From contig CAZOKZ010000001.1 in the NCBI GenBank assembly GCA_964580585.1, positions 23,261 through 87,260 on the forward strand: a stretch of 64,000 bases of DNA. Reading direction: 5' to 3'. Positions 2,964 to 61,780 of the stretch are shown here, piece after piece. The DNA is from an uncultured Candidatus Sumerlaeota bacterium. GTDB lineage: Bacteria; Sumerlaeota; Sumerlaeia; SLMS01; JAHLLQ01. Position 1 is the stretch's first letter. The number at the start of each line of letters is the position of its first letter. The notes below the pieces were generated by a model, which was given only the letters and a program-made list of their open reading frames with translations, was not told the origin of the DNA and ran no database searches. Made by a program: the position numbers and the translations under genes.

Positions 2964-4454
2964 TTATGCCTTGTCTTGGGGGACTTCTTCCTCAGAAGGT
3001 TCGGCTTCTGTGGACGCTGCCGATTCAGACGCCTCTGTTTCTTCGGCATCCTCGGGAGTTTCCACCGTTACCTTGCCTGCCAGGCGATCGGCAAGTGCCG
3101 AAGCCGCCTTCAAGCGCTGACGTACGTCTTCGGTGATGCCAGCTTCGGAATCCTTGGTCATCTGTTGCAGGTTTTCCAAGTATTCCTTGGCGCCATCGAC
3201 GATGTCTTCTGCCAATTCCTGATCGTCGCCCGTAAAGCTGAGCAATTGCTGCGCGTCTGCTTCTGCCAGTTTTTCCACGCTGTTGAAGTCTTCCGTGCGG
3301 GTGAGAGCTTCGGCGGCGAATGCCGTCAAACCATCGATCTGGTTCAGGAAGTCGTTGAGGTACTGGAGAGAGATTGTCTCGAGACGTGCCATTTCGGCTT
3401 CGTCTTCCTGCTCGGTCACGTCAATTTTCCAACCGGTCAACTTCGCGGCCAGTTTTGCGTTTTGTCCGCGCTTGCCAATGGCTTTGGCGAGCGAGTCGTG
3501 TTCAACAACCACATGAGCGCGTTTTTCGATTTCGTTCAACTTGATCGAAACGATCTTCGCGGGGTTCAGGGCCGATGAAATAAACGATTCGGGAATCACC
3601 GAGTACGGCACGATATCGACTTTTTCGTTGTCGAGTTCACGCACGATCATCTGAACGCGCGAGCCTTTCATACCGACGCACGCACCGACGGGATCGACGT
3701 CCGGGTTCATGCTGTTGACGGCGATCTTGGTCCGAACGCCTGGCTCACGGGCAATTTCAACGATGCGAACGGTGGCGTCGCTGATTTCCGGTACTTCGGT
3801 GGCGAACAGTTGTTTCACCAGTTCAGAGCGCGTACGTGACAAAATGACCTGCGGGCCTTTTGGCGTGCGGCGAACATCGATGATCAAGCAGCGGATACGG
3901 TCGCCATAGCGATAACGCACACCGAAGGGAATTTCCTGGTTGGGGAGCAGGCATTCGACCTTGCCGAGTGCGACGATTGCGTCGCGACGTTCGTAACGTT
4001 GGACGATGCCCGTAACGACCGAGCCAACTTTGTCTTTATAATCGGTGTAAATACGATCGCGTTCGGCATCGCGCAGGCGTTGGAGAATGCCCTGGCGTAC
4101 GGATTGGGCGGCAATGCGGCCAAATTCTTCGGGATCGATTTCGACTTCGATTTCATCGTCGAGCATGTGCTGGGGGTTACGGGCTTTTGCGGCCAGAATG
4201 TCGATCTCCGTGCGGGGATCGTTCACCGAAACGACAACGCGTTTCTTGACATAAATGCGCATGTCGCCGGTTTCTAAATCCAGGTCGGGGCGTGGGAAAT
4301 GAAAGACCTGGGCGCGTTTGCTGGCCGCCGAGAGGATCGCCATTTCCACAGCATGTTTGATTACATCAGGTTCAAGGTCCTTTTCCTTCGAGATCATCTT
4401 GATCAGCGGTTTGACGTTCAGGGCCTTGATTTCGTTTTTTTTCTTCTTCGCCAC
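2964..4454 (-). CDS. nusA: Transcription termination/antitermination factor NusA with a long acidic C-terminal tail.
   Basis: N-terminal, S1 and KH region similarity to NusA; likely GTG start at 4454 preceded by GGAG; the ORF track extends to 4628. Confidence 0.85.
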   Translation of the reverse strand: MAKKKKNEIKALNVKPLIKMISKEKDLEPDVIKHAVEMAILSAASKRAQVFHFPRPDLDLETGDMRIYVKKRVVVSVNDPRTEIDILAAKARNPQHMLDDEIEVEIDPEEFGRIAAQSVRQGILQRLRDAERDRIYTDYKDKVGSVVTGIVQRYERRDAIVALGKVECLLPNQEIPFGVRYRYGDRIRCLIIDVRRTPKGPQVILSRTRSELVKQLFATEVPEISDATVRIVEIAREPGVRTKIAVNSMNPDVDPVGACVGMKGSRVQMIVRELDNEKVDIVPYSVIPESFISSALNPAKIVSIKLNEIEKRAHVVVEHDSLAKAIGKRGQNAKLAAKLTGWKIDVTEQEDEAEMARLETISLQYLNDFLNQIDGLTAFAAEALTRTEDFNSVEKLAEADAQQLLSFTGDDQELAEDIVDGAKEYLENLQQMTKDSEAGITEDVRQRLKAASALADRLAGKVTVETPEDAEETEASESAASTEAEPSEEEVPQDKA

Positions 4455-4624: not shown

Positions 4625-5833
4625 TCACTCATTCGGCAGCTTATCCCGTAAGACTTTCCAGGCCAGATTAAGTCGTTTCGCTTTGGCTTCAGCCATTTTG
4701 CGGAAGTCTTCATCGTCGTGGAACTTGTCGGGATGGTAGCGCATTTGCATTTTACGGAAAATTTTCTGCGCGTATTCAAGTGTTGTATTTTCCGTCAGCG
4801 CGAACAACTCCAGCGCTTCCTCGAAGGAAATTTTATCTTCGACTCTCAGTTTTTCTTCAGAGGCTCCATTGTCTTCACGGGGCTCTTCTTCCTCGGGCTC
4901 ATCCGCTTTGGGGGGCGCTTTCGGGCGAGTTTCCCAACCGCCCATGGGATGAGCCTGGATTTTAGGGGCCAGGTCGTTGCGCAGCATTTCTTCGACATCG
5001 ATGACAGAAAGCGGGCGACCCATGCCTTCGAGCGCTTCACAAATATGACGTGTTGTTGGGGGCTCGAACGCACGTTCGATGAATTCCAAAATATAGCGAC
5101 CCAGGAAATTTCGCAAATGCGGATCGTCCAGGTACTGATCCGGCTTTGTGTTGGCGTCCACGGCGCCGTAATCCGCGGGCTCTGTGTCCCCATCGCCCAG
5201 CATGCGAGCAAATCGTCCGGCGGTCGCGCGCATCTGGCTGTAAATGGCCTGATAGGAGTGAAGCGACCCCGCTTGGATTGGAGGAATATCCATGTCGGAT
5301 TTCTTGCGGCCAAATCCCACGGCATCATTGAAAACAACAACTTTGCCTTTGTGTGGCGGTCCCACCATTTTTTTGGCGGAATCGGCAATTTCATGCGTCA
5401 TGCAGAGGATCAAATTTGCCCAGCGAATTTGAGGAGCCAGTAAGGGCTTGCTGCGATGCCCTTTCAGGCTAACCCGGTGTTCGTAGAGGAATTTGGCGAA
5501 TTCGCGCTCGGGTGGCGTGGGCACTTGCACGTCGATTCCGGCACTATCGAAGGACGTATCGAAGACGTTGAACTCCTTGGCAAAGTTCTGCGTCATCGCC
5601 CGAGCCATAGGCCCGCGGAACAGATCGTGATTGCTGAGAAAAAGGACATGCATTTTTATTGTGCGGTCGTTGCGATGCGTTTGAAAGTCTCGAATACGAT
5701 GAGACCAGTCTTGCCACGAGCCAATCAAATTATTGAGAATTCTTGGGCGAATTTTCACGAGACTCCTCAACCCGGGATTCTTCACAGGCTGTTCCATGAA
5801 AGACGGAATTGTACGGATCGTTCTTAAGCGCAT
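4625..5833 (-). CDS. Fusion protein with a low-molecular-weight PTP/ArsC-like domain (Ser replaces the CX5R cysteine: SNHDLFRGP) and a C-terminal J domain (HPD motif).
   Basis: VLFLSNHDLFRGPMA resembles the LMW-PTP P-loop with C to S; C-terminus YAQKIFRKMQMRYHPDKF ... KAKRLNLAWKVL is a J domain. The start is uncertain: it could be the internal Met at 5653. Confidence 0.55.
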   Translation of the reverse strand: MRLRTIRTIPSFMEQPVKNPGLRSLVKIRPRILNNLIGSWQDWSHRIRDFQTHRNDRTIKMHVLFLSNHDLFRGPMARAMTQNFAKEFNVFDTSFDSAGIDVQVPTPPEREFAKFLYEHRVSLKGHRSKPLLAPQIRWANLILCMTHEIADSAKKMVGPPHKGKVVVFNDAVGFGRKKSDMDIPPIQAGSLHSYQAIYSQMRATAGRFARMLGDGDTEPADYGAVDANTKPDQYLDDPHLRNFLGRYILEFIERAFEPPTTRHICEALEGMGRPLSVIDVEEMLRNDLAPKIQAHPMGGWETRPKAPPKADEPEEEEPREDNGASEEKLRVEDKISFEEALELFALTENTTLEYAQKIFRKMQMRYHPDKFHDDEDFRKMAEAKAKRLNLAWKVLRDKLPNE

Positions 5834-6320
5834 TGCCTTGATTTGTTTTACGCTGGATTTGCGTGCCAGCCGTCGGATTCGGCGCGCGATGGGGGAGACA
5901 TCTTACCGGTTGGGAGGTCGCTGTCAGGGGTGTGCCAAATGTTGCGAAGCTCCCACGATCCAGGTGGGGATTCTGACCTATCGACTGGTGACATTTCGGA
6001 TGATTTTTCTCGCCTGGCATCGGTGGGTGAACGGATTTCACCTGACGGGCGAGGACCCGCAAATTCGGGCGTTCGAATTTCGCTGCACCCATTTCGATCC
6101 GAAAACCCGTCGGTGCGATTCGTACACCAGCCGCCCCGGCATGTGCCGCGATTACCCGAGAGCGCTGCTCTGGGAAGCCAACCCGCCATTGTTTCCTGAA
6201 TGTGGCTACCGTGCCGTGGCGCCCAACGCCGAACAGGTGACCGCGCTGCTCGAACACGAAGACTTGCCGCCGGAGAAGTTGGAGGAGTTGAAGGAGAAGT
6301 TGATGCTGAAGGATGAATAA
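5796..6320 (+). CDS. YkgJ/UPF0153 family protein with a putative Zn/Fe-chelating CxxCxxCC domain.
   Basis: CQGCAKCCE motif plus downstream conserved Cys and RPxxCRxYP; start ambiguous (5733 or 5796). Confidence 0.55.
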   Translation: MKDGIVRIVLKRIALICFTLDLRASRRIRRAMGETSYRLGGRCQGCAKCCEAPTIQVGILTYRLVTFRMIFLAWHRWVNGFHLTGEDPQIRAFEFRCTHFDPKTRRCDSYTSRPGMCRDYPRALLWEANPPLFPECGYRAVAPNAEQVTALLEHEDLPPEKLEELKEKLMLKDE

Positions 6321-6476: not shown

Positions 6477-7244
6477 ATGCAGATTCGCGACGTTATCGAT
6501 ATCCTGATGATATCGATCGTCTTCTTTTTGCTCTTCAACATGATCCGAAAATCGCGCAGCCAGGTGGCTTTGCGCGGATTGCTGATCGTGCTTTCGTTCA
6601 CGTTACTGCTTTATTTGATCACGGTCATGGCGGAACTGAGCGCCACCAAGGCACTGCTGACCCGGCTATGGGTCGTGTTCGTGCTGATTTTCCTGATCGT
6701 GTTCCAGAACGAGTTCAAGAAAAGCCTGACCGACTATGGCCGGTTGCCAATTTTTAGAGCCTTGTTCAAGCAGGAAGCCGCTCCTTTGGACGAGGTAATC
6801 AAGGCAGTCGCGCGTTTGGCGGAAAAAAAAGTCGGGGCATTGATTTGCATCGAGCGTCGCACACCGCTCAGGCCTTATATTGAAACGGGCACCATGATCG
6901 ACGGGCTCGTCACCGTCGAATTGCTCCGAACTATTTTTGCACTCTATACGCCATTGCACGACGGGGCGGTAATCATGCGCAATAACCGCATCGTGGCGGC
7001 GGGATGCCTGTTGCCGTTGACCAATCAGGAACTCTCCAAAGATTTAGGCACGCGTCACCGGGCGGCGATTGGATTGGGCGAAGAAACGGACGCCGTCGTC
7101 GTAGTCGTTTCGGAAGAAACCGGGACGATCTCGATTGCCTACGACGGTATTATCCAACGACCGGAAACCGCGGATTCCTTGCGCCAAAAGCTGCGCGATC
7201 TGTTTGAAATCGAAGAGGAGGAAGCGGATGTCGAAGCCGTCTAG
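6477..7244 (+). CDS. cdaA: Diadenylate cyclase CdaA (c-di-AMP synthase) with three N-terminal TM helices and a DAC domain.
   Basis: DGA(V/I)I ... RHRAA(I/L)G ... SEETG motifs; strong similarity to Bacillus CdaA. Confidence 0.9.
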   Translation: MQIRDVIDILMISIVFFLLFNMIRKSRSQVALRGLLIVLSFTLLLYLITVMAELSATKALLTRLWVVFVLIFLIVFQNEFKKSLTDYGRLPIFRALFKQEAAPLDEVIKAVARLAEKKVGALICIERRTPLRPYIETGTMIDGLVTVELLRTIFALYTPLHDGAVIMRNNRIVAAGCLLPLTNQELSKDLGTRHRAAIGLGEETDAVVVVVSEETGTISIAYDGIIQRPETADSLRQKLRDLFEIEEEEADVEAV

Positions 7245-8442
7245 CGGTCCATTCAGTGATTTCGCTCTCATCCTCTTTTCGCTCGCGTTGGGGTTCATTG
7301 TCTGGGTCATCGTTCGCCAGCAGGAAACGGTGACGCGCACGGTCCTGGTGCCGGTGTATTACGAAAACCTGCCGGATTATATTGAGTTGCAGGACTATAA
7401 TCCAAAGAATATCGCTGTCAGCTTCAGCCTGGCCAAGGGCGACGACCCCCTGACAAGCGCGTCGGAAAAATTTCGCGCCACGGTGGATTTGACTCGATTG
7501 GTAGAGCGCAATATCCAAACGGAGAGCTTTAAGGAAATCTCTCTTCCGGTGGAACGGACTAAACTCGATTATCCCAAGAAGCTTACATTTATAGCCTTCG
7601 AGGATACTCCGGCCGTGACGTTCAGCGCCCGATTGCGTGTCGCCATGGCACGGATCGAGGTTAACCTTGTAGGCGATCATCCGGCGATGGGTTATCGTAT
7701 CGATCGCCAGAACATTGTCATGAACCCCAACGAAATCTATGTGGCCGTTGATCAAAAACGATATGAGCAATCGCTGACAAACCAGTTGGTCATCAAAACG
7801 GAACCGATCGATGTGACCGGCAAGCAGGTGGGAATAACAGGTTTATACCGAGTGCTTTATGGTGAAACGGACGGAATTTTCCCCGTTCCGGGACGAGCGG
7901 AAACCGTTGAAATTATGGTGCCGATTCAAGAAGTTGAAAGCACTAGAGTTTACCATAACATCCCCGTTCGATACGAAACATTGAAACGCGGGGTGCGGGC
8001 AGAGTTGACGCCTTCCAATGTCACGGTTTCGGTCGAAGGACCACCCAGTTTGCTCACGCAATTGCAACCAGCGATGATTCGGCTGACGCCGCGAACGACG
8101 AAATTCCTCGACGAGGAACGCATCGGAGACAGTGTGGAAACGGCGATTGAGATTTCCTATCTGACGGCGGACGAAAAGTTCCAAAAACGCCTGAAAGCAA
8201 CACTCGATCCATCTTTGGTTTTGGTACGATTCTTCCCGCATACGGATGCAGTTCCGATCGACATCCCATTGGAGACCCCAATACCGGTTATTGAATCGAC
8301 ACCGACACCTGTGCCAACAGGGACACCGACCCCCACGCCGGAACCCGTTGAGATTCACGTGGACGATGACGTTACCAGTCCGTTGATTCTCCGTGTCGAG
8401 GATACCGCCACAACACCGACCGCGACGAGTACCGCGGAATGA
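7228..8442 (+). CDS. cdaR: CdaR/YbbR-like regulator of CdaA with a Pro/Thr-rich C-terminus.
   Basis: Immediately downstream of cdaA and overlapping its stop; N-terminal TM segment; YbbR-like repeat architecture. Confidence 0.65.
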   Translation: MSKPSSGPFSDFALILFSLALGFIVWVIVRQQETVTRTVLVPVYYENLPDYIELQDYNPKNIAVSFSLAKGDDPLTSASEKFRATVDLTRLVERNIQTESFKEISLPVERTKLDYPKKLTFIAFEDTPAVTFSARLRVAMARIEVNLVGDHPAMGYRIDRQNIVMNPNEIYVAVDQKRYEQSLTNQLVIKTEPIDVTGKQVGITGLYRVLYGETDGIFPVPGRAETVEIMVPIQEVESTRVYHNIPVRYETLKRGVRAELTPSNVTVSVEGPPSLLTQLQPAMIRLTPRTTKFLDEERIGDSVETAIEISYLTADEKFQKRLKATLDPSLVLVRFFPHTDAVPIDIPLETPIPVIESTPTPVPTGTPTPTPEPVEIHVDDDVTSPLILRVEDTATTPTATSTAE

Positions 8443-12023: not shown

Positions 12024-12074
12024 AGTTACCTTGAAAGAGTGGGATTTTGGATCCAATTCTGGTGGTTGGTTAAC

Positions 12075-13547
12075 ATGACAAACAGCAGCACAAACCCTTA
12101 TCAACGACTCGACGTGTGGGAAACGCTCAAAGCCCACGTGCTCGATCACGTGCCGCGATTACTGGAGCACGTGCCAGACAAATCGCGCGCCGATTGGAAA
12201 CGTCTGCCGCTATTCGAGGCTCAACTGTTCGCGGCAATGGTGTTGCTTGATTTAGACGTGGAAAGCTCTTCGCTTCGGCGCCAGGCGCGTTCGTTTTTGA
12301 AAGAGTTGAAGGACGAAGAAACTGCTCAAACACCCGCATTCGGTGTTGTGCGCGAATCTTCTCCCACGTTTGTGGAAAAATTGACTCCCACTAAACGAAA
12401 AAAAGTACAGCAATTGATCGCCGCTGTTGAGGCGAATCCTCCAGGAGCCTTTTTGGCTGACGTGTCGGGCCCACAAGCCGCCGTTAGATGGGTGGGTCAG
12501 GAAATCAAACATCTCAATGGACTCAAAGCGCATCGTTGGCTGGTTGCCTTGGGCTATCCGATGGCGGTGCCCGATGCCGCCCGGCAACGGTTTCTGATGC
12601 GCATGGGCTGGATGGGAACAGAATCAGGTTCAGGCGATGAAAAACGTGCGCAAACGTTGGAGTCGCTTGAGGTGTTGGCGCATGAAGTTGGCGCAACGTT
12701 GAGTGAAATCAACCTTGTGTTAGGAGCATTTTGCGGGTCGGGTGGTGAAATTGCGCGCCAGGCAGCGCGCTGCCTGGGAGTCCCCAAATGTCCGCAATGT
12801 CCACTTGCCAAACATTGCACCTACTACCGGTTGCGCGGGAAAGAAGTCCGCTCACAGAACCGCAGTCTGGTGGCTACCACCCGCAAAGAGCAGCGCCCAC
12901 GTGAACGGTTGGCAGCTCAAGGCCCCGGAGTATTGAGCGATGAAGAATTGCTCGCCATTATTCTGCGCACTGGTGGGGGAGGACTGAACGCCATCGATCT
13001 GGCGCAGCAAATTTTACGCGAGGCCGGAACGTTCGAGCGCCTGGCTGCCATGTCGGTGGCCGAATTGGCCCGCTTTCCCGGTATGGGAGAGGTCAAGGCA
13101 ATCACAATCAAAGCGGCGCTTGAAATGGCGCGGCGATTGAAACAAAGCGGCGATGGTTCGGTGGGGGTGAAAATCAACAGTGCCCGGCGCGTCTTCGAGC
13201 GTTTACGTCCCCGATTTATCGGAGCGACAAAGGAAGAGTTTCTGGTATTGTTGTTGAACACCAAATTGGAAATTACGCGCGAAGTTCACGTTTCAACGGG
13301 AACGTTGAACCAAAGCCTCGTTCATCCCCGTGAGGTATTCAGCGAAGCAATTCGCGACGCCGCTCACGCGGTGATCTTCATCCACAATCACCCAAGCGGC
13401 GACCCCGAGCCCAGCCGGGAGGATTTTGCGGTGACGAATAAATTGGTCAAGGCGGGCGAAATCATGGGAATTCAAGTGCTCGATCATATTATCATTGGGC
13501 GCGACCGATACTATTCCTTTGCGGACGAGGGGAAATTGACCTCGTAA
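12075..13547 (+). CDS. radC: RadC/JAB-domain protein with an extra N-terminal domain of about 280 aa resembling an HhH-GPD (EndoIII-like) module, including an FCL-like Cys loop.
   Basis: C-terminal HNHPSGDPEPSREDFAVT JAMM-like motif and RadC HhH N-region (LSDEELLAIIL...); N-terminal C-x5-C-x2-C-x5-C and HhH-like LNGLKAHRWLVALGY. Confidence 0.7.
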   Translation: MTNSSTNPYQRLDVWETLKAHVLDHVPRLLEHVPDKSRADWKRLPLFEAQLFAAMVLLDLDVESSSLRRQARSFLKELKDEETAQTPAFGVVRESSPTFVEKLTPTKRKKVQQLIAAVEANPPGAFLADVSGPQAAVRWVGQEIKHLNGLKAHRWLVALGYPMAVPDAARQRFLMRMGWMGTESGSGDEKRAQTLESLEVLAHEVGATLSEINLVLGAFCGSGGEIARQAARCLGVPKCPQCPLAKHCTYYRLRGKEVRSQNRSLVATTRKEQRPRERLAAQGPGVLSDEELLAIILRTGGGGLNAIDLAQQILREAGTFERLAAMSVAELARFPGMGEVKAITIKAALEMARRLKQSGDGSVGVKINSARRVFERLRPRFIGATKEEFLVLLLNTKLEITREVHVSTGTLNQSLVHPREVFSEAIRDAAHAVIFIHNHPSGDPEPSREDFAVTNKLVKAGEIMGIQVLDHIIIGRDRYYSFADEGKLTS

Positions 13548-15424: not shown

Positions 15425-16241
15425 GGACTAACTCCATTTGAGAAAGGCATTCTTCGGCGTGTTGAATTCGATCGATCAGGACGCTGAGGCGTTGACGCAT
15501 TTTTTCATCGCGTGCGTCGGCATTCTGAATACGCTGCACCAGTTCCTCTTTCTCCTGGCGCAGAACGGTCAATTCACTTTCCAATTCGTTGAACTGGCCC
15601 ATGCGCGATTCCAATTCGAGGAATTTTTCGACTTCCTCGTCAAGGTCGCGCTGTAATTCATCACGTTTCTGATTCAGACCGGTGATCGTTCCCTCAAGAC
15701 CCGCCACACGGTTTTGCGCTTCTTCGAGTTGGCTACGCATTCCATCTACCTCGCGTGACAATTCACCCACTCGATTGTTGGCTAGGTCCAATTGGCCCTG
15801 AATTTCATTGCGGTGGTTGACAACACCGTCGTGCCAACCTTCCAGCTCGGTGATGCGTGCGCGAGCCCCATCCAGTTCGCCCTGGATTTCATCGCGATGC
15901 TTCACGGCGCTATCGTGCCAGCCCTGGATTTCATTGGCGCGGGCCTGGGCTGCGTCCAATTCACTGCGAACGGTATTCAATTCATTATGAAGATTTTCTT
16001 TTTCGCCACGTAACTGGTCGCGTTCGGTGCGCAGCGCTTCGAGCTCCTTGCGCTCTTCCTCGAAACGCGCCAATTCTTCGAGCGCTTCCGAAAGATCCGA
16101 CTGAATTTTGTCGTGGTCGGCGACCGTGACTTTCAAGGCGTCGTTTTCGGTTTCCAACTGATTCTTCGTCGTGCGCAGGGATTCGAGCTCGTCAATGAGG
16201 CGATTTACGCGCGCTTCCAACTGATCAACAATTTCCACCAT
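15408..16241 (-). CDS. ZapB-like coiled-coil protein, extended to 277 aa, with internal repeats (GWHD ... EIQG.LD).
   Basis: N-terminus resembles the ZapB leucine-zipper region; a coiled-coil heptad pattern runs throughout; overlaps the zapA start by 17 nt. Confidence 0.5.
   Translation of the reverse strand: MVEIVDQLEARVNRLIDELESLRTTKNQLETENDALKVTVADHDKIQSDLSEALEELARFEEERKELEALRTERDQLRGEKENLHNELNTVRSELDAAQARANEIQGWHDSAVKHRDEIQGELDGARARITELEGWHDGVVNHRNEIQGQLDLANNRVGELSREVDGMRSQLEEAQNRVAGLEGTITGLNQKRDELQRDLDEEVEKFLELESRMGQFNELESELTVLRQEKEELVQRIQNADARDEKMRQRLSVLIDRIQHAEECLSQMELVHENAG
15787..15954. repeat. Two tandem copies of an 84-nt unit inside the ZapB-like gene, encoding the 28-aa repeat GWHD.VV.HR.EIQG.LD ...
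   Basis: Direct comparison of 15787-15870 with 15871-15954, about 70% identical. Confidence 0.5.
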
Positions 16242-16618
16242 GAGCGTATCATCCTTCCGAATAGGTATCTGCAGGAACAGGAACGGGGTTTGAATCTAAA
16301 GATTCCCTGGAAACACCCGAACCCTGTCGAATGAGTCCTCACAGTGTCAATAGTAATGCGGAATACCATGAAGTCTTCTTTTGGACTGCGAGTTATCCAC
16401 AGCTTTGCCGAATCGGCGCAACAACCTGGGGGAGGAATGGCGGGTTTTTGACACCTAATGGCTATTGAAACGCTTCTATTGAATCTTACGCAACTGTTGA
16501 ATTTACAATCTCCTGCGCAAAACCCTCGCGCCGCCGAAATTCCCCGTGGCATACTTTGAGATTGCGATATGATCTCCCCAGGATGCTGGGCGCTTGCCCG
16601 CTCGCAAAGGCTGCAACG

Positions 16619-17113
16619 ATGGCGTCTTACGCCTTTGGCTTGATATCCGACACGCATGGAGTCCTGCACCCAGATGTCTTCGACATCTTCGATGGGGTGC
16701 ATGCGATTTTTCATGCGGGCGATGTCGAAGGCGAAGATATACTGGACGAATTGGAAACCATCGCTCCCGTTTTTGCCGTTCAGGGAAATTGCGATCATCC
16801 CAGCCCACGATTGCCCCCTATCCAGGTTATCGATGCGCCGTTTGGCAGCATTGTTGTCTCTCACAGTCATCTGGTAGCGGGGGGGGTTGCTCATCCGAAA
16901 ATGTTGGCCAAGCACTTTGGGCGCTATAATCCCCGGGTCATTATTTTTGGGCACACACACCGGCCCTATGAGTACGAACACGACGGAATTTGGCTGATCA
17001 ATCCCGGACCGGCAGGAAAATCGCGTAACTATGACAATGCGTCGGTCGTTTACATGCAATGGCACGATGAAAACGACGAATTGACGTTCGACTTTGTGCC
17101 CTTGATTTGGTGA
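16619..17113 (+). CDS. Metallophosphoesterase, YfcE/MJ0936 family.
   Basis: GLISDTHG, HAGD, GNCD and GHTH motifs. Confidence 0.8.
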   Translation: MASYAFGLISDTHGVLHPDVFDIFDGVHAIFHAGDVEGEDILDELETIAPVFAVQGNCDHPSPRLPPIQVIDAPFGSIVVSHSHLVAGGVAHPKMLAKHFGRYNPRVIIFGHTHRPYEYEHDGIWLINPGPAGKSRNYDNASVVYMQWHDENDELTFDFVPLIW

Positions 17114-24868: not shown

Positions 24869-25105
24869 GAGCGAGGTATCCTGTTGGGGCGAAAGTCAGA
24901 CGAAAGCACCGTCCAAAACCATGCCGAATGGCGTCAAGACACTTTGACGCCGTCGGGTGGATGAATTATTTAAAGATGAAAGGAACATCTGCGACCAACG
25001 TGGCTTCGATGTTTTTCAGAAAAAAAATCCATCTCCTGCAATTTTATTCCGCCGGTGCACTTGTGTCTGGTGAAGGAGCAATTTTCACGGAAGGACAGAC
25101 GAAGG

Positions 25106-26914
25106 ATGCTCTCTCGCAACAGTGAACGCTCGGACATCGATTTGGTGCGCGCCGCGCAGGGTGGCGACGACAAGGCCTACACGCAACTGGTCGATCGGCA
25201 TTTCGGTCTCGTGTACTCGATTGCATATGCCCGCATGAGCAATCGCGAGGCTGCCGAGGACTTGGCGCAGGAGGTTTTTCTCCAGGTGTTTCTGCACGTC
25301 AAGCAACTCGACACGCGGCGGAAGGTGAATTTCCCCGCCTGGGTGGCGCGTATTACGCGGAATCTGGCGTTTCACTGGCAGCGAAAAAACCAACGCCGTT
25401 CGGAGCTGGTTCCCATGGTGCCACTGGACAAGGATTCGATGCAGGTTTCCGACCACGAGACGGACCATTCACGCGACCGGATGATCGCGGCGGAACAACG
25501 CCGCGCCGTCGAGCGCGCGGTGCTGGATTTACCCGCCGATCAACGCGAAATGGTGGTGCTGCATTACACCGAGAAGTTGAGTAAAAAGCAGATTGCTCAA
25601 CGCCTCGGTATGCATCCTTCGACGGTGGGCCGCCAGATCGACCGCGCGGTTTCGAGCATGAAGGGACTGGTTCAAACGTCGCTCGAAAGCACGGCGCCGA
25701 CGTTGGCGGCTTCGGCCAAGGCACCGGTGTATGCGGCGGGGTTGATTTCTGCCGTGGCGGCCATGAACGAAGCGGCGCGCGCCAATTTGCTCGCCTCGCC
25801 AACGTTCACGTCGGCGGCTGCCCAAGCGTTCGAGACCACGAGAAATGTATCCCGTCTGTCCACCTTTGTGAAATGGCTCCTCCCAATTATCCTTTATGGA
25901 GGAACGACCATGAGTACGGCAAAAATTGTTGGTGGAATCAGTGCAGCAGTAGGTGTTTTGGTATTATCGGGAGTGGGGTACCAGTATTACGAATCGACGA
26001 AAAAAACCACCAAGTTAACCGAGATGAGTTCAGCCGTGGTGACGTCGTCGGGCGAAGTGAATGAAACCAACCCGGAAATTCGACTTTGGGTGGACTTAAC
26101 TCCCGGCAAAACATGGAAAAGCGAAACGCAAGTTGAAACAACCAGTGACGTAGAGGTGAGTTTGAAACCAGGTATTATCAAGTCGCAAACCGTCGTCAGA
26201 ACGCAAATGGCTCACCGCACGTTGCCGCCGAATCAACAAGGACAAGCGCAGGTTGAAAACCTTGTCAGTGGTATGCAAATGACGGCCGTAGTGGATGGCA
26301 AACAAGTCGATCCCAAGGAAACGGGAATGGATATCGGCAGGGCGATGGCGGGTACAAAGACCATCGATGTGATGGACAATTTTGGACGTATTGTTACATC
26401 CGTTGAAGATGACGAAACGAAAAAAGATAATATCATGACGAACCCGGCGGTTCTAGCGTTGGGAAACATCGACAGAATCGCCATGGGGGAACTGCCTGAA
26501 AAATCCGTTCGGGTGGGCGATACATGGACTCGCGTCATCAGCGCTCCTGATTTCGTCCAATTCCAGTCACGCTACGAATGCAAGTTCGACAGAATCGAAG
26601 AAACTCCCCAAGGAAGAGTTGCTGTGATTACGCGTCGCTCGGTCGTGGATTTGGATAAACCAACGCCGCTTGGGAAAATTCCGATTCCAGAAGCAGGAAC
26701 CGAAGCTGATATGACGTTTCTATCGATGACAGGTGAAACGCGCCATATTTCACGATTGCTGATCGATGAAGGCGAATGGCTGAATCACTTTGCGACAACG
26801 AGTTTCGACCTCACAACGCGAATGGACTTAACTGTTCAGGGCAAACCCATATCGATTGATATGAAAACCAGTGGCTCCGAAACACGTACAACCGAAATGA
26901 AGTACGGAGTGTAA
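25106..26914 (+). CDS. ECF (sigma-70 family) sigma factor with no stop codon before an Ala-rich linker, a single TM helix and an extracytoplasmic domain of about 310 aa of unknown fold. An internal ATG at 25910 with a GGAGGA RBS may also express the C-terminal module on its own.
   Basis: Sigma2 region (DLAQEVFLQVF) and sigma4 region (LDLPADQREMVVLHYTEKLSKKQIAQRLGMHPSTV); the ORF continues without a stop into a paralog of 27122-28132; GTG alternative start at 25055. Confidence 0.6.
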   Translation: MLSRNSERSDIDLVRAAQGGDDKAYTQLVDRHFGLVYSIAYARMSNREAAEDLAQEVFLQVFLHVKQLDTRRKVNFPAWVARITRNLAFHWQRKNQRRSELVPMVPLDKDSMQVSDHETDHSRDRMIAAEQRRAVERAVLDLPADQREMVVLHYTEKLSKKQIAQRLGMHPSTVGRQIDRAVSSMKGLVQTSLESTAPTLAASAKAPVYAAGLISAVAAMNEAARANLLASPTFTSAAAQAFETTRNVSRLSTFVKWLLPIILYGGTTMSTAKIVGGISAAVGVLVLSGVGYQYYESTKKTTKLTEMSSAVVTSSGEVNETNPEIRLWVDLTPGKTWKSETQVETTSDVEVSLKPGIIKSQTVVRTQMAHRTLPPNQQGQAQVENLVSGMQMTAVVDGKQVDPKETGMDIGRAMAGTKTIDVMDNFGRIVTSVEDDETKKDNIMTNPAVLALGNIDRIAMGELPEKSVRVGDTWTRVISAPDFVQFQSRYECKFDRIEETPQGRVAVITRRSVVDLDKPTPLGKIPIPEAGTEADMTFLSMTGETRHISRLLIDEGEWLNHFATTSFDLTTRMDLTVQGKPISIDMKTSGSETRTTEMKYGV

Positions 26915-27121: not shown

Positions 27122-28132
27122 ATGAGTAAGGCGAAAATCATCGGCGGAATCAGTACGGCAACCGGTGTTTTGGTATTATCGGGAATTGGTTATTATTATT
27201 TCGAGACAACGAAAAAGACCTCTCAATTGACCGAGATGGCTCCAGCCGTGGTCACCACCAATTCGGCGGTGTCGAACGAAAACAATCCCGCTATTCGATT
27301 GTGGGTGGATTTAGTTCCGGGAAAAACCTGGAAAAGCCAAACGAATATTGAATCTTCAAGCACAGTTCAAGGAGCGATAATCCCCGAACCCATTGAGCAA
27401 CAAACGACCATACGCATTCATTCGACACACCGAATTTTACCACCGAATGAAGAGGGACAGACACAAATCGACAACCTGATCGACGACGCTCAAATGACCG
27501 TTGTGGTTAATGGTGAAGAAGTTGATTTGAAAAGTAAAGGAGTCGATGTCATCGGTTCCATGATCGGAACCAATACTATAGACGTTGTGGATTCATTCGG
27601 AAGAATCATGTCCGAAGTAAAAGACGAGCAGCAAAACGATACCTTTATGTCTAACCCCGCCTTATTGGCATTGGGAAACATCGATCGGATCGCTCTGTGC
27701 GAACTTCCAGAAAAACCCGTTCGCATAGGAGACACTTGGACTCGAACGATCACGGTCCCGGAAATCCCAAGTCTCAATATTTTGTACGAATGCAAATTCG
27801 AGCGTATCGAAGACACTCCACAAGGCCGTGTAGCCGTCATCACGAGGTATGCCAATAGCGACCTGCAAAATCTTAATGCACCCATGGGCAAATTACCGAT
27901 GGAAGAAATCGATGGCGATGCGGACTTTACGTTTCTGGCGATGAAAGGCGAGACCCATCATATTTCGCGCTTGGCGCTCGATCAGGGGCAATGGATCGAT
28001 CACGTATCCACGACAACATCGGATGTTAAAACACGGATGGACTTTGCCTTTCAAGAGAAGCCGATTTCGATTGAAATGACAACTCTTGGTAACGAGAAAC
28101 GTGTCACAACGATGAACTATGGAGCCGAGTAG
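27122..28132 (+). CDS. Single-pass membrane protein of unknown function, paralog (about 55% aa identity) of the C-terminal module of the ECF sigma ORF.
   Basis: MSKAKIIGGISTATGVLVLSGIGYYYFETTKKT against MSTAKIVGGISAAVGVLVLSGVGYQYYESTKKT; the upstream 40 nt including the RBS is also duplicated. Confidence 0.6.
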   Translation: MSKAKIIGGISTATGVLVLSGIGYYYFETTKKTSQLTEMAPAVVTTNSAVSNENNPAIRLWVDLVPGKTWKSQTNIESSSTVQGAIIPEPIEQQTTIRIHSTHRILPPNEEGQTQIDNLIDDAQMTVVVNGEEVDLKSKGVDVIGSMIGTNTIDVVDSFGRIMSEVKDEQQNDTFMSNPALLALGNIDRIALCELPEKPVRIGDTWTRTITVPEIPSLNILYECKFERIEDTPQGRVAVITRYANSDLQNLNAPMGKLPMEEIDGDADFTFLAMKGETHHISRLALDQGQWIDHVSTTTSDVKTRMDFAFQEKPISIEMTTLGNEKRVTTMNYGAE

Positions 28133-31352: not shown

Positions 31353-33110
31353 TCAAACCAATTTAAACCATTCAACGCCTATGGCTAACATACGTTTGTC
31401 TGCACTATCGGTTGGGCAACTCGCATCGGGCAACTCTAAAATGACGATATTATTTTCTGTAAGATAAGATGAAGATACTGGAAATAAAATAGTCGTGGTT
31501 TCCGTTAGCTCTTTTTCTCCTAATAATTGACCGTTCAAGAAAACACGAATTCGTTGCGATTTTATTCTTCCATTATCCAAGAATGGGAATCCACGTAATG
31601 TAAAATAGCGAGGTGTCTTTTCTTCTGAGAAATGAAGTAATATCGTAGCCTGTTGACCATCTGTCCAACGAAAAGTACCTTCAGGGTACGCTGCCCATCC
31701 TGACCAAAGCACCGGGTGTGCCAGAACAGACCCAGGATTAATATTTGTACCAATCGAATATTCAGGGAATTCAGGTGGCAATGATGCGGGAAGCAGCCAT
31801 GCAAGGCTTTGCGGTTGTTTCCAGTCCCAAAGTCGCCATTTCATTTCGTCAATACTAAATGGTTTTTCATTCCATTGCCACGATTTCCACGAAAATGCAG
31901 CGGGAGCGTTTTGTGCAATGCTTAGAATGCTCGCGATAAATATAATTCCCCCAATACAATGGCGTTTCCAGCCTGTTTTCGGCATTTGCGAATATTCTTT
32001 CATCACACCGAGCACCATCGGAATGAACCAGGGAATCATATCGAAAAATAAGCGTGGGCCATAACTGAACCCGCCATACCAATACCATCTCCAGTACACG
32101 GCTATCAGCAAAAAGTGAACTCCAAATACACATAGAGCACATTTGACGAATATATTATTCCATATGAGCGATGGTTTAAATAACAAACCCGCGAGAGGGA
32201 GTAATAATATTGGAGAATAAAAGAACAAACCTCTGGATGGACTGATAAGTGATCCCAGAATGGACTCACCAACATTCCCATCTGCCGTTCGTGCTGCGTA
32301 AAAATATCTTGGCAAAAATTGATTATAATGGCTGTATGAATAAAAGATGAATAGAAGTCCCCAGAAAAACAAGGTTCCAAACATGATCACTGCTGATTTT
32401 TTGTTCATCTTGATAAGAATGACGATGATGGCAATCATTGAAATAGCAAACGTTGGTCGGGAAAAAAACATAAACGCTAATATTGTCCCTAAAAGTGACG
32501 ATAGCCAGTATTTTGTTGGGAATTTTTCATGTTGACACAGCAGGATAATTGCTACGATGAGAAGGAATACGCCCCATGTGCTCGACCAAAGCGCGCGCGT
32601 CCCGGTGCTCCAAACCGAAGTCCCCAAGGCAAATATTATTGTACAAATAATGGAAGGTACTATACTAAGCTCATTTGAAAAGTAAAGAAAGACAAGAGCG
32701 CTTGCGAGAGCCATTAAAAAACCAGAAAGTATTCGCTGCATCAAATCTTCGTTACTGGGATTATATTTGCCTTCCTGATCGAAACAACTTAATCCCCCAA
32801 GCTTGAATAAAGCAACGAATGGGATGCTGAGAATACTGCTTCCAGGCGGATAATAATAATACAAGCGACCTTGATATTCTTCTATTTGATAGGGAAGCCC
32901 CGATTCGTTTAACGAAGGGTGTCGATTAGGGTCTAAGGGGCGTTGAAAATATTGAGTTAGATCGAAGCTCCCCGTTTCCATCAAATGTTCGCTCAACAAC
33001 AGCGAATAACGAGAGTCCGCCATTTGTGTAACGGGTCCACTTAGAAAAAGAATCCAGAACAGGATGAAGAGTATTGAACTAATGAGGATTCTTTTGCTAT
33101 TCAAAACCAT
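31353..33110 (-). CDS. Polytopic membrane protein, GT-C-like glycosyltransferase (ArnT/PMT-like) with a C-terminal extracytoplasmic domain; markedly AT-rich gene.
   Basis: More than ten predicted TM helices; local GC about 40% against about 55% for the rest of the window. Confidence 0.45.
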   Translation of the reverse strand: MVLNSKRILISSILFILFWILFLSGPVTQMADSRYSLLLSEHLMETGSFDLTQYFQRPLDPNRHPSLNESGLPYQIEEYQGRLYYYYPPGSSILSIPFVALFKLGGLSCFDQEGKYNPSNEDLMQRILSGFLMALASALVFLYFSNELSIVPSIICTIIFALGTSVWSTGTRALWSSTWGVFLLIVAIILLCQHEKFPTKYWLSSLLGTILAFMFFSRPTFAISMIAIIVILIKMNKKSAVIMFGTLFFWGLLFIFYSYSHYNQFLPRYFYAARTADGNVGESILGSLISPSRGLFFYSPILLLPLAGLLFKPSLIWNNIFVKCALCVFGVHFLLIAVYWRWYWYGGFSYGPRLFFDMIPWFIPMVLGVMKEYSQMPKTGWKRHCIGGIIFIASILSIAQNAPAAFSWKSWQWNEKPFSIDEMKWRLWDWKQPQSLAWLLPASLPPEFPEYSIGTNINPGSVLAHPVLWSGWAAYPEGTFRWTDGQQATILLHFSEEKTPRYFTLRGFPFLDNGRIKSQRIRVFLNGQLLGEKELTETTTILFPVSSSYLTENNIVILELPDASCPTDSADKRMLAIGVEWFKLV

Positions 33111-34757: not shown

Positions 34758-37499
34758 ATGCGCATGTCTTTGATAATCAAGAACTTGCAACACTTTTCCC
34801 GATCCGCCTCACTTGCTTTTCTGGCTGGAGCATTGTTGCTCCCGAGTTGGAGCAATGCGCAGTTATCCACCATGAGCGAGGGGACGACCACACTCAAGGT
34901 TACCACTGCCGAAGAGCAAAGTCATACTCCGGCCAGCGTGGAGCAGGTAACGGATATGGAAAACCTTCCGCGCAGCTTCTGGGTCAATACGCTGCTGGGA
35001 GATTCCGTCCTTCGTAACGATCTTTCTTTTGTGTCCGTGGGCGATATCTCTTCGGATTTCAGGCTGGCAGTTGGGCAGCAAAAACTGCTTCGTCAAGGCG
35101 GGTTGCTGGACATCACGACCTCCATGGCGGACCCGGAAAACTTCCATCTTTTGCTGCCAAACACGGCTGGCGCCAACGAATACCGTCTTCAAGCTCGTGA
35201 TCTGACGCGCCGGGAAAACGACGACAAAAGCGCCTCGGTCATCGTTGAATATTACGATTCAACGTACCCCTTTCTGACTGCTCGCACAGAATTCAACATG
35301 CCGAGCGACATGCCGGGTGTGCTGGTAACCACCACATTAACCAATACCAGCGAAGAATACATCGCCAAGAATGTGATTCCCTCGGATTTCATCCTGTGGG
35401 GAGCGATGAGTCCTTTTGTTCCCGGCAAAGGTTGGGCGACAAACGCCAAAATCGACGAAGCCGAGTTCATTTTTGCCCGACGATACGATGTCTGGATGTT
35501 GATCGCGCCTGAATCGGGAACCATGGACATCGACCAGCGGGGTGAGCTGTGCGGCCTTTCATACGGTTCGCCCAGTAACATGGAACCAGGCGAAACTAAA
35601 GTTTTCCGCCGCTGGGTGCTAACCTCGAAAAATGATCCGGCTTACCTTTACTCGAAAATCCTTGAAAAACGTCCGAACGCCGATTTCGGCACTTTGTTGG
35701 GCCGCGTTATTGAACGTGAACAAACCCCAGACGGTGCGATGATGGAGCGCGGACCAGTGGGGGACTGCGATATCTTCCTTTCGCCCGTCATTCGTAAGAC
35801 TTGGACCGACGAGCAACGTAGCACGTTCATGGGGCGCCCCTATTTGATCACCACGAGCCAACCCAACGGTGTTTTCAACACCCTTTTACCCTCGGGCGAT
35901 TATCGGGTGATTCCTGCGCCAGAGTCCCGATTGGCTCCGATTCCCAACTATACGTCCAAAATCGAAAAAGACAAAGTAGAAGCCATCGATTTCGGTGTCT
36001 CGGCATCTTCTCGTTTGATTTACAAACTCGTGGATGCCGATACGAAGGAGTTAATTCCCGGTAAACTAACAATCGAGCCCTTGCGAGGCACACGTTCGCT
36101 CGAACTGGGACCGCCAAGCGACGTGCGCGCAGGAAACGTAGTGTTATCTTCCCATGGTGCGGGGATCGTTGAATTGCCCCCTGGGTCCTATCGCGTAATT
36201 GCCTCGCGTGGACCCGAGTACCATACCGTCGAGCAACGCATTAAGGTAAACCAAGTCAAAGATACGACACAGGTTTTTGTTCTCAAACGCGCATTCGAGA
36301 CACCCGGTTGGATTTCCGCCGACGTTGGCGTGCGCACCGATGCCACGGTATCGAGCCGAGTGAGCAAGGAGTCGCGAGTCGTCTCTGCAGTTGCGGAAGG
36401 CGTCGAGTGGTTGGTGAGCGGTGACACGGACACTGCGACCGATTTGCAACCCGCAGTGGAAAGCCTGGGGTTATCGAAGTTTTTGACGACATCCCCCGGA
36501 TTCCGACATTCAGGCGATGTGACACCGTTTCGAGGCGACTTCTTGCTCTTCCCAACGAACATTTGTTCGTCGGGTTTTGAACCGGATTTCACTCCGGTGC
36601 GTGCTGCAAATTCCAGCCGTGAAATTCTGGCTTCCATGCGCGCGCTTTGTCCCGAAGCCGCTATCTTGGTTTCCCGACCCGTTTGGCCGTCGATTGGTTA
36701 TTTGTCGCTTCAAGGTTTCGATCCCACGGTTGGAACAATACCCGAAGGCGATTGGAGCCGCGATTTCGATGCCTTTCAAATTTGGGAAGGCAAGCGCCAG
36801 GGGACGATCAACGAAGATTATCTGACGTATCATAACCTCTTGCGCGAAGGGATGAAGCTGACCGCGTTTGGTGCCAGTAATTCCCATGAGACATGGATGC
36901 AGGAACCCGGTTATCCGCGCGTGTATGTAAAATCCAGCACGGACGATCCGTCAAAAATCGATCCGGAAGAATTAGCGCGAAATATCAAGAACCGCCAGGT
37001 CTGTGTGACGAACGGTCCCTTTGTTTCCGTCAAGGTTAACGGTAAACCCATGGGGTCGCTGGTAACGGACACCGATGGATCGGTGGATCTTGAAATCGAG
37101 GTTCAAGCCGCCAACTGGGTTCAGATCGAATCGATCAGTGTAAACCTCAATGGCCTGTTTGTGCGTAAAATTCTGCTCAATTCAGCCGCGCTGGACCCCA
37201 ACGCGGGTTGCATTTTTCCGCCGAAGGATTCGCCAGAAGACGGCAAGCTCAAGCTGACCATGCGCAAGGACGCTGTCTTGGATGTTGTCGTCGAAGGCTC
37301 CATTGACATTCCGATGGACCCGGTCAATCCGTTCATTGCGTTGACACGGGATAACAAAATCCCACGCGGTCAATTCCCGATGGCTATTTCAGCGCCTACC
37401 TTCCTGGACATCGATGGCGACGGCAAAATCACAATGCCGAAAGTTACACCCGAAGGCACCACCGTCGAAGGCGAAGCGGGCGAAGATCCGCCATTCTAA
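34758..37499 (+). CDS. Large secreted protein (913 aa) of unknown function.
   Basis: Signal peptide ending SWSNAQ; no confidently recognised domain. Confidence 0.5.
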   Translation: MRMSLIIKNLQHFSRSASLAFLAGALLLPSWSNAQLSTMSEGTTTLKVTTAEEQSHTPASVEQVTDMENLPRSFWVNTLLGDSVLRNDLSFVSVGDISSDFRLAVGQQKLLRQGGLLDITTSMADPENFHLLLPNTAGANEYRLQARDLTRRENDDKSASVIVEYYDSTYPFLTARTEFNMPSDMPGVLVTTTLTNTSEEYIAKNVIPSDFILWGAMSPFVPGKGWATNAKIDEAEFIFARRYDVWMLIAPESGTMDIDQRGELCGLSYGSPSNMEPGETKVFRRWVLTSKNDPAYLYSKILEKRPNADFGTLLGRVIEREQTPDGAMMERGPVGDCDIFLSPVIRKTWTDEQRSTFMGRPYLITTSQPNGVFNTLLPSGDYRVIPAPESRLAPIPNYTSKIEKDKVEAIDFGVSASSRLIYKLVDADTKELIPGKLTIEPLRGTRSLELGPPSDVRAGNVVLSSHGAGIVELPPGSYRVIASRGPEYHTVEQRIKVNQVKDTTQVFVLKRAFETPGWISADVGVRTDATVSSRVSKESRVVSAVAEGVEWLVSGDTDTATDLQPAVESLGLSKFLTTSPGFRHSGDVTPFRGDFLLFPTNICSSGFEPDFTPVRAANSSREILASMRALCPEAAILVSRPVWPSIGYLSLQGFDPTVGTIPEGDWSRDFDAFQIWEGKRQGTINEDYLTYHNLLREGMKLTAFGASNSHETWMQEPGYPRVYVKSSTDDPSKIDPEELARNIKNRQVCVTNGPFVSVKVNGKPMGSLVTDTDGSVDLEIEVQAANWVQIESISVNLNGLFVRKILLNSAALDPNAGCIFPPKDSPEDGKLKLTMRKDAVLDVVVEGSIDIPMDPVNPFIALTRDNKIPRGQFPMAISAPTFLDIDGDGKITMPKVTPEGTTVEGEAGEDPPF

Positions 37500-52166: not shown

Positions 52167-52176
52167 GGAGAACAAG

Positions 52177-61615: not shown

Positions 61616-61780
61616 TGGTGTAAGAATTCCGTTTCGTTCCGAATCTCTGTCTTGCGCTTCCGTCTCAAGCTTCCGTAACGTAGCCCTGTTACGCCTTAGT
61701 CTTGAGTACTTTCGGCGCTTTTTTTGTCGGGTTCGATTCTCCTTCTCCCGACTGTAACTTCCTTTAGGATTTCCCGACGA

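Follow-up and report, generated by a model that had tools for sequence, protein, structure and literature searches.

Cys-based phosphatase folds that lack the catalytic residue are conserved in STYX, MK-STYX/STYXL1 and the D2 domains of receptor protein tyrosine phosphatases (PTPs), and they are thought to bind rather than to hydrolyse. Known readers of phosphorylated residues are few in bacteria; examples are FHA domains for phosphothreonine and the ClpC N-domain for phosphoarginine. Here we analysed a gene in a 64,000-nucleotide stretch of DNA (the window) from an uncultured Candidatus Sumerlaeota bacterium, and found that it encodes a fold of the low-molecular-weight PTP (LMW-PTP) class with Ser at the position of the catalytic Cys, joined through a winged-helix domain to a C-terminal J domain. 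The pseudophosphatases named above (for context, see PMC7772506 and PMC4257672) differ from this protein in that they are eukaryotic, belong to the dual-specificity or classical PTP class and not to the LMW class, and have no J-domain fusion.

The closest described system is YwlE, the protein arginine phosphatase of Bacillus subtilis (PDB entries 4kk3, 4kk4 and 4etn), which has the same fold and is the best sequence match among solved structures (E=3e-18 with the family profile). In YwlE and in DARP, the specificity for phosphoarginine is reported to come from Thr at position 5 of the P-loop together with Asp118 (PMC7772506; 10.64898/2026.01.13.697720). The family described here has several motifs in common with YwlE, including the P-loop Arg-x-Pro-Met-Ala, SAG, H-R-S, ADLILCMT and KV..L.E.V. 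However, Ser stands in place of the catalytic Cys, x-Asp in place of Gly-Asn, Leu in place of Thr11 (a variable position in the family) and Gly in place of the Ser that follows the Arg. Where DP(F/Y) has its general-acid Asp, this protein has Pro and the family no conserved residue, and a winged helix and a J domain are attached to the phosphatase-like domain. Thus, both phosphoarginine determinants of YwlE are lost, since position 5 is Leu here (L/R/V/I/E in the family) and Asp118 is the lost general acid.

The second group of described systems is the class C (type III) J proteins (DjlA, CbpA-like proteins, HscB), which likewise join a J domain carrying the His-Pro-Asp (HPD) motif to a specialised targeting or client domain. 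In DjlA the J domain is also C-terminal, and NCBIfam returned weak matches, confined to the J domain, to its DjlA, HscB and DnaJ models. In contrast to these proteins, the family has neither the transmembrane or TerB domain of DjlA, nor the C-terminal helical bundle of HscB, nor the Gly/Phe or zinc-finger regions of DnaJ, and its targeting module, a pseudophosphatase plus a winged helix, is unlike that of other class C J proteins. Our full-text literature search found no study of an LMW-PTP/J-domain fusion, of a bacterial LMW-type pseudophosphatase, or of Sumerlaeota with DnaJ. By the features compared, the protein lacks what defines an active LMW-PTP, a YwlE-type arginine phosphatase, ArsC, HscB and a DNA-binding winged-helix regulator. 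In concept, its way of working would resemble that of STYX and MK-STYX among the pseudophosphatases and that of other specialised J proteins.

Domain organization of the fusion protein

The gene lies in an uninterrupted open reading frame (ORF) of 402 codons on the minus strand (4625..5833). All residue numbers follow this ORF (M61 = residue 61). Its features are listed below.

4625..5653, minus strand: most likely coding sequence (CDS) of the pseudo-LMW-PTP / winged-helix / J-domain protein, 342 aa plus stop, ATG at 5653-5651, start set by homologues
5195..5653, minus strand: LMW-PTP-like (YwlE-like) domain, residues 61-213 (Pfam LMWPc, Foldseek, hhalign)
5609..5635, minus strand: remodelled P-loop S67-N-H-D70-L-F-R73-G-P75 (alignment to YwlE C7-T-G-N-T-C-R13-S-P and column counts)
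5273..5296, minus strand: D-loop remnant DMDIPPIQ, residues 180-187, with D182 conserved and Pro185 at the position of the general-acid Asp
5162..5182, minus strand: conserved segment between the domains, E-P-A-D-Y-G-A here and P-E-D-F-G-A as the consensus of the family, in which G223 never varies (alignment A1)
4925..5128, minus strand: acidic winged-helix domain, residues 236-303 (from AlphaFold2 modelling of this domain alone and from Foldseek)
4829..4924, minus strand: variable, charged, disordered linker, residues 304-335, predicted local distance difference test score (pLDDT) 37-47
4634..4828, minus strand: J domain, residues 336-400 (Pfam DnaJ, phmmer, family profile), with the HPD motif at 4727-4735
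5654..5833, minus strand: 60-codon upstream extension of the mechanical ORF, absent from homologues, of low pLDDT, with a promoter-like site inside

An earlier note, made from the sequence, had assigned the N-terminal region to the LMW-PTPs by its P-loop, and this assignment holds by both profile and predicted fold. Residues 63-206 scored 48.2 bits with Pfam LMWPc (PF01451), above the cut-off of 23.2, at E=1.7e-12. The NCBIfam matches were partial and sub-threshold, and fell on the Wzb, DnaJ, HscB and DjlA models. Among PDB sequences, the best matches were B. subtilis YwlE and its C7S variant (MDIIFV(C/S)TGNTCRSPMA in the aligned stretch). Here, phmmer aligned MHVLFLSNHDLFRGPMA to YwlE MDIIFVCTGNTCRSPMA, placing Ser67 on Cys7 and Arg73 on Arg13.

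The AlphaFold2 model, built with 36 sequences, has a mean pLDDT of 82, and values above 90 over most of the LMW-PTP domain. In the Foldseek comparison with the PDB, YwlE (4etn, 4kk4, 4kk3) ranked first with template-modelling (TM) scores of 0.90-0.92 and a root-mean-square deviation (rmsd) of 1.6-1.7 A; Wzb, DARP and human LMW-PTP came next. The predicted model has the four-stranded, Rossmann-like LMW-PTP fold, with TM scores of 0.75-0.92 against YwlE, Wzb and human LMW-PTP. We also compared the family domain with 72 canonical CxGNxCRS LMW-PTPs by hhalign, which gave a probability of 100% and E=9e-40. These E-values and the conservation described below are far beyond chance. By fold and profile, the protein belongs to the LMWPc superfamily and probably also to the J-domain proteins.

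A conserved pocket without the canonical catalytic residues

The codon of Ser67 (AGC, 5633-5635) stands at the position of the catalytic Cys, and the loop reads S-N-H-D-L-F-R-G where the signature C-X5-R-(S/T) has its catalytic Cys. The replacement of Cys by Ser had been read from this one sequence by the earlier note, and the homologues conserve it. Of the 26 members whose N-terminus was called, 25 have Ser in the first column of the P-loop (Cys in 1); further columns hold Asp in 26, Cys in 18, Arg in 26, Gly in 24 and Pro in 26. The resulting pattern, S-x-x-D-x-C-R-G-P, is the best-conserved portion of the phosphatase-like domain. Ser is also found at the nucleophile position of two clusters with miscalled starts once their upstream frame is read. 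Additional members from the exhaustive search described below carry Thr (P0037) or Cys (P0038) at this position, and at one locus (L008) Cys replaces the +3 Asp of the P-loop. The Arg that anchors phosphate is retained (R73, 26/26 members), and two other positions, S97 (in the SAG motif) and H126, hardly vary across the alignment. In canonical LMW-PTPs, the equivalent residues buttress the P-loop.

The D-loop has lost its catalytic residue as well. The canonical D-loop DI-x-DP-F-G pairs in hhalign with DI-x-P-P of the family, which puts residue 185 at the general-acid position. The six commonest residues in this column are Pro (19), Ala (4), Gly (3), Arg (2), Thr (2) and Leu (2); Asp is not among them, and the general acid/base Asp of the D-P-Y/F motif has no conserved counterpart in the family. 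We examined D182 as a shifted general acid and rejected it, because canonical YwlE-type proteins have two Asp residues here (DI-x-DP) and it is the first of them that D182 matches in the alignment; D182 is therefore the structural Asp of the D-loop. The fold had been described previously as a probably inactive phosphatase, and this description is strengthened because the general-acid Asp is missing in addition to the Cys and the Ser is conserved. Of the canonical mechanism, the domain thus lacks the general acid as well as the nucleophile, whereas it appears to retain the anion-binding cradle.

The codons of the Ser provide a further view of this pocket. AGY codons were found in nine distinct sequences (the window included) and TCN codons in four (L007, L011, L014, L017), the latter falling in two different subclades. 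AGY and TCN are two substitutions apart, and the one-step intermediates encode Cys (TGY) and Thr (ACN); besides Ser, no residues but these two were seen there. The mixture would fit either of two histories, a repeated switching of codons or Cys-to-Ser replacements that arose independently. In both cases, a small hydroxyl or thiol side chain is selected at position 67. Because Ser is kept through both codon families, together with the invariant or nearly invariant Arg, Gly and Pro, the pocket is a conserved functional site under selection and not a decaying relic.

The catalytic triad of ArsC consists of the P-loop Cys and two downstream Cys residues. The comparison of the P-loop with ArsC in the earlier note does not apply, and we rejected this identity: the P-loop Cys is Ser, and the only other conserved Cys seen is C144 in the LILCMT core, which is present in canonical LMW-PTPs too.

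J domain and acidic winged helix

The window sequence alone scored 25.2 bits (E=1.8e-5) over residues 346-398 against Pfam DnaJ (PF00226), below the cut-off of 27.8. When eight family members were rescanned with the same model, they scored 25.5-44 bits and 7/8 were above the cut-off. The HPDKF motif is invariant in 36/36 aligned sequences (H367-P-D369 in this protein, between helices II and III). The isolated region was aligned by phmmer to the J domains of DNAJA1, CSP-alpha, E. coli DnaJ, Tim14 and HscB with the HPD in register, and the family profile matched solved J domains at ~1e-9 to 1e-10. The predicted helices of the J domain have pLDDT >90. We take the J domain to be real, as it is backed by the family profile, by the homologues and by the predicted fold, and we attribute the sub-threshold score of the window sequence to divergence. 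The C-terminal HPD J domain of the earlier note therefore stands; of the two profiles that it named, only PF01451 passes with this sequence, and PF00226 passes with seven of the eight relatives rescanned.

Apart from the family, we observed the same HPDKFHDD motif in an N-terminal J domain of Bacteroidota proteins of ~150 aa (L026, 3956-4417, plus strand, and L020-L033). Their C-terminal domain seems unrelated, and the J domain alone is common to them and the Sumerlaeota family.

The earlier description of the architecture was right about the two outer domains and overlooked the one between them. We modelled the isolated middle domain with AlphaFold2 (pLDDT 88), and found three helices and a two-strand wing. 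Foldseek matched this model to NiaR, Rv1846c, MntR, FtsK-gamma and BirA-N with probabilities of 0.9-1.0 and an rmsd of ~1.8-2 A over 60-68 residues, at E-values of just 0.03-0.1; the model has a winged helix-turn-helix fold. The net charge of the domain is 0 to -8 (negative in 33/35 members), and helix 3 carries -2 to -5 in all 35 members, none of which has the basic recognition helix suited to DNA contact. We rejected a DNA-binding role on these charges. Because the domain is acidic, binding to DNA seems unlikely and contact with protein more likely. The linker that follows has 17% identity across the family, and its length varies from 19 to 75 aa.

A small family restricted to one candidate phylum

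The word-indexed search gave 35 clusters, and each of them has both Pfam domains apart from P0019, whose record lists LMWPc alone. When 1.84 billion representatives were searched exhaustively with a HMMER profile, no more than 19 proteins (representatives at 50% identity) reached E<=1e-30. Between 5e-64 and 7e-30 there is a gap in the E-values, followed by other LMWPc- or J-domain proteins and then by generic single-domain LMW-PTPs at ~1e-20. The nearest relatives outside the family in this search carry the YwlE-type CTGNTCRS loop. The order of the three domains is fixed and is the same in independent assemblies; the divergent members P0043 and P0044 have two winged-helix domains and keep the Ser. 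The named members are all Candidatus Sumerlaeota or Sumerlaeia, save a few labelled 'bacterium' and one labelled 'Poribacteria' (on a 2.5-kb contig). Thus, the family is small, sharply bounded and restricted to one candidate phylum. In public databases its members are annotated as 'DnaJ domain-containing protein' or 'protein-tyrosine-phosphatase/DnaJ-domain-containing protein'.

One protein outside the family may tell how it arose. P0113 is an unannotated, stand-alone LMW-PTP-like protein of 148 aa, 29% identical over 135 residues. Like the family, it has a P-loop of the form C-D-R-D-I-C-R-G-P (x-D-x-D-I-C-R-G-P in the family) and a D-loop, D-I-N-P-P, without the general acid. Unlike the family, it keeps the Cys nucleophile and has no winged-helix or J domain. 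Because P0113 has no general acid yet keeps the Cys and stands alone, it suggests that the general acid was lost before the Cys-to-Ser change and before the fusion. P0113 may resemble the precursor of the fused family.

Two other arrangements of the LMWPc domain were observed during the searches. P0053 and P0054 represent another non-Cys variant of the fold, with Asp at the nucleophile position (F-I-D-T-G-D-N-C-R-[CA]-P-M-A), an intact DPMGG D-loop and a histone H1-like tail of ~150-180 residues rich in Lys, Ala and Pro. In P0047, a protein of 1679 aa, five LMWPc domains in tandem accompany PEP-utilizers and PPDK_N domains.

Start codon and upstream region

The first reading had taken the gene to span the whole ORF (4625-5833), and its start is wrong. 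The Met aligned with residue 61 is the first residue in 25/26 homologues that carry the N-terminus (alignment A1), and P0017 has Leu at the position of M61. Residues 1-60 have pLDDT values of 39-59 in the AlphaFold2 model. A sigma-70-like -35/-10 pair lies on the minus strand at 5758..5729, within the supposed extension; our promoter and terminator scan gave weak consensus matches only, and this pair is one of them. We set the CDS at 4625..5653 because of the homologue starts at M61, the low confidence of residues 1-60 and the promoter-like pair. M61 is almost certainly the true start, and codons 1-60 are probably untranslated and part of the divergent promoter region. The divergent YkgJ-type gene starts at a conserved ATG (5796), which leaves an intergenic region of 142 bp between the two genes.

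The NCBI gene call (P0001) is 25 residues shorter than the ORF, yet ~35 longer than the homologues. Start miscalls are frequent across the family, and nine clusters of the alignment are without the N-terminus. We considered a subclade lacking the P-loop, formed by clusters beginning MAR..., and rejected it, as a miscalled start codon accounts for both loci that were checked. At L034 and L035, whose clusters are called from Met76, the in-frame upstream DNA encodes a full P-loop (MKILFVSESDQCRGP and MRILFVSQFDTCRAP, respectively).

Genomic neighborhood

The two nearest neighbors of the gene are the following.

5796..6320, plus strand: YkgJ-family CxxCxxCC gene, putative Zn/Fe-binding, divergent neighbor (PF03692, E=5e-10)
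2964..4454, minus strand: nusA, directly downstream on the same strand (Pfam NusA_N, S1, KH_5), given for context

The divergent YkgJ-type gene, already noticed from the sequence, is supported by its Pfam match. It is adjacent and divergent in the window and at six further distinct homologous loci, and lies one gene away at a seventh, so that this neighbor is conserved in one clade of the family. Downstream, the order nusA, TPR, GATase recurs in L003, L007, L009 and L011. In the distant clade (L006/L016, L013-L015, L018, L034, L035), neither the YkgJ-type gene nor nusA was found within the flanks covered (1.9-8 kb upstream). The loci that share synteny have NusA proteins 70-84% identical and YkgJ-type proteins 54-65% identical to those of the window. 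Because these genomes are close, the shared gene order is weak evidence of function.

An HscB-like Fe-S co-chaperone was examined as an identity for the gene and rejected. The HscB models matched the J region only (residues 342-399), with 24.6 and 21.2 bits, far short of the cut-offs of 189 and 46.75. HscB carries its J domain at the N-terminus, and this protein at the C-terminus. In addition, the YkgJ-type neighbor is kept only among closely related genomes.

Proposed function and alternative explanations

The explanation that we tentatively prefer, with a little less than even confidence, is a class C (type III) J-domain co-chaperone whose pseudophosphatase pocket would bind a phosphate-bearing ligand without turnover, and whose J domain would trigger capture by DnaK. 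The N-terminal domain would have descended from YwlE-type LMW phosphatases. Its catalytic Cys has given way to Ser and its general-acid Asp is gone, while the phosphate cradle, formed by the P-loop backbone, the invariant Arg, Ser97 and His126, would have been kept under strong selection. In the proposed mechanism, Arg73, the backbone amides and the hydroxyl of Ser67 could recognise a phosphorylated client or a phosphate-like anion without hydrolysing it, and the acidic winged helix may contribute a protein-protein contact. The flexible charged linker would allow the C-terminal J domain to dock on DnaK-ATP; the HPD motif would then trigger ATP hydrolysis, and DnaK would clamp onto the bound client.

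A non-hydrolysing pocket is supported by laboratory variants of its relatives, because Cys-to-Ser variants of YwlE and DARP are phosphatase-inactive (10.1101/2022.09.15.508104; PMC7772506) and DARP C7S still holds a phosphate ion in its P-loop (PMC7772506). Three observations weigh against the preferred explanation. The change of the canonical P-loop Gly-Asn to x-Asp brings a negative charge near the pocket, which could lower its affinity for phosphate. The ligand class is not predictable, as Thr11 and Asp118 of YwlE are not kept. Finally, no McsB, BY-kinase or canonical LMW-PTP was found in the 64-kb window, where the only kinases are a Kdo/WaaP-family kinase and two histidine kinases. Of the roles raised by the earlier note, substrate trapping or an adapter function is the best available hypothesis for the conserved pocket, and a Ser-based chemistry seems less likely without the general acid.

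A more far-reaching reading, in which the domain is a natural phospho-residue reader, a built-in 'substrate trap' made from an arginine or tyrosine phosphatase that hands phosphorylated proteins to DnaK/Hsp70, is in our view improbable. If it were true, it would directly link phosphorylation marks to Hsp70 refolding in bacteria, in parallel to the pArg-ClpC degradation of Firmicutes. More generally, if the pocket binds phosphorylated clients, the family would show that in some bacteria proteins marked by phosphorylation are sent to Hsp70, and its trapping domain, shaped by natural evolution, could serve as a tool. Otherwise, the family would still illustrate clearly how a co-chaperone in a little-studied candidate phylum has put a catalytic fold to use as its targeting module.

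The conservation of the pocket would also be expected if the pseudophosphatase domain had kept some chemistry. Here, Ser67 (Thr or Cys in a few members) would attack a high-energy phospho-donor such as phosphoarginine, and the protein would act as a slow phosphatase or as a phospho-acceptor and sensor that tunes the co-chaperone through phosphoserine. Position 67 holds nucleophilic side chains only (Ser, Thr, Cys) and never Ala, Gly or Asp, the entire pocket is strongly conserved, and the title given to the PDB entry 4kk4, 'YwlE arginine phosphatase - C7S mutant with phosphorylated active site serine', indicates that a Ser in such a pocket can accept phosphate. However, the general-acid Asp is missing, along with the phosphoarginine determinants Thr11 and Asp118 (10.64898/2026.01.13.697720), YwlE C7S behaves as phosphatase-inactive in vitro and in vivo (10.1101/2022.09.15.508104), and there is no evident mechanism to hydrolyse a phosphoserine intermediate. 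We consider residual chemistry quite improbable on this balance.

Alternatively, the pseudophosphatase and the winged helix could form a pure protein-protein scaffold that brings DnaK to one dedicated partner and binds no phospho-ligand, which we hold to be possible, if unlikely. Candidates for the partner would be the YkgJ-type Zn/Fe-S protein (by analogy with HscB and IscU), a cognate kinase, or the transcription machinery around NusA. The divergent YkgJ-type gene at the loci described above, nusA downstream in several of them and an acidic winged helix more likely to bind protein than DNA are all consistent with such a scaffold, and the J domain is matched by the NCBIfam models for HscB roughly as well as by those for DnaJ. 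But the HscB matches span only the generic J domain, the taxa that share the gene order are close, so it may be inherited without a functional link, and the distant clade has neither neighbor in its covered flanks. A scaffold also leaves unexplained why the P-loop residues are the most conserved of the domain. An artefact or a decaying gene, whether a chimeric assembly, a frameshifted gene pair or a pseudogene, is hardly credible: the J domain of the window sequence does fall below the Pfam cut-off and the start is wrong in both the mechanical ORF and the NCBI call, but independent assemblies repeat the same three-domain order, in 35 clusters and in 19 representatives at 50% identity. The frame is uninterrupted, and all three domains carry invariant motifs and are confidently predicted. 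Conservation across independent assemblies refutes this explanation in practice.

Other genes in the window

The remainder of the 64-kb window consists of housekeeping genes, among which several ORFs have unusual features. The position after CdaA is usually occupied by a CdaR/YbbR regulator. Just past the YkgJ-type gene, the diadenylate cyclase CdaA (DAC and CdaA_N domains) is followed by an overlapping ORF of 435 aa without a Pfam match (6477-8442, plus strand, for the two together).

Two ORFs combine functions. A 603-aa ORF (61724-63535, plus strand) carries porphobilinogen deaminase (HemC) and uroporphyrinogen-III synthase (HemD), and adjoins glutamyl-tRNA reductase (60332-61615). The 857-aa ORF at 43000-45573 (plus strand) has a membrane region resembling the major facilitator superfamily (sub-threshold, residues 36-381) and a spermidine/spermine synthase domain (residues 521-667).

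Three further ORFs contain long stretches outside their recognised domains. The dihydroxy-acid/6-phosphogluconate dehydratase ORF (55443-57692, minus strand, 749 aa) has ~190 residues without a Pfam match between its Pfam domains at 43-363 and 552-743. The RadC-like JAB protein (12039-13547, plus strand, 502 aa) has ~280 N-terminal residues before its UPF0758_N and RadC domains, which may be an overcalled start or an extra domain. A protein with sigma-70 region 2 and region 4, resembling the extracytoplasmic function (ECF) type (25055-26914, plus strand), carries ~400 extra C-terminal residues without a Pfam match. Finally, five ORFs of 286-913 aa gave no Pfam match at E<=1e-4 to 1e-5: 34758-37499, 52018-53400 and 27122-28132 on the plus strand, and 31353-33110 and 16205-17065 on the minus strand.

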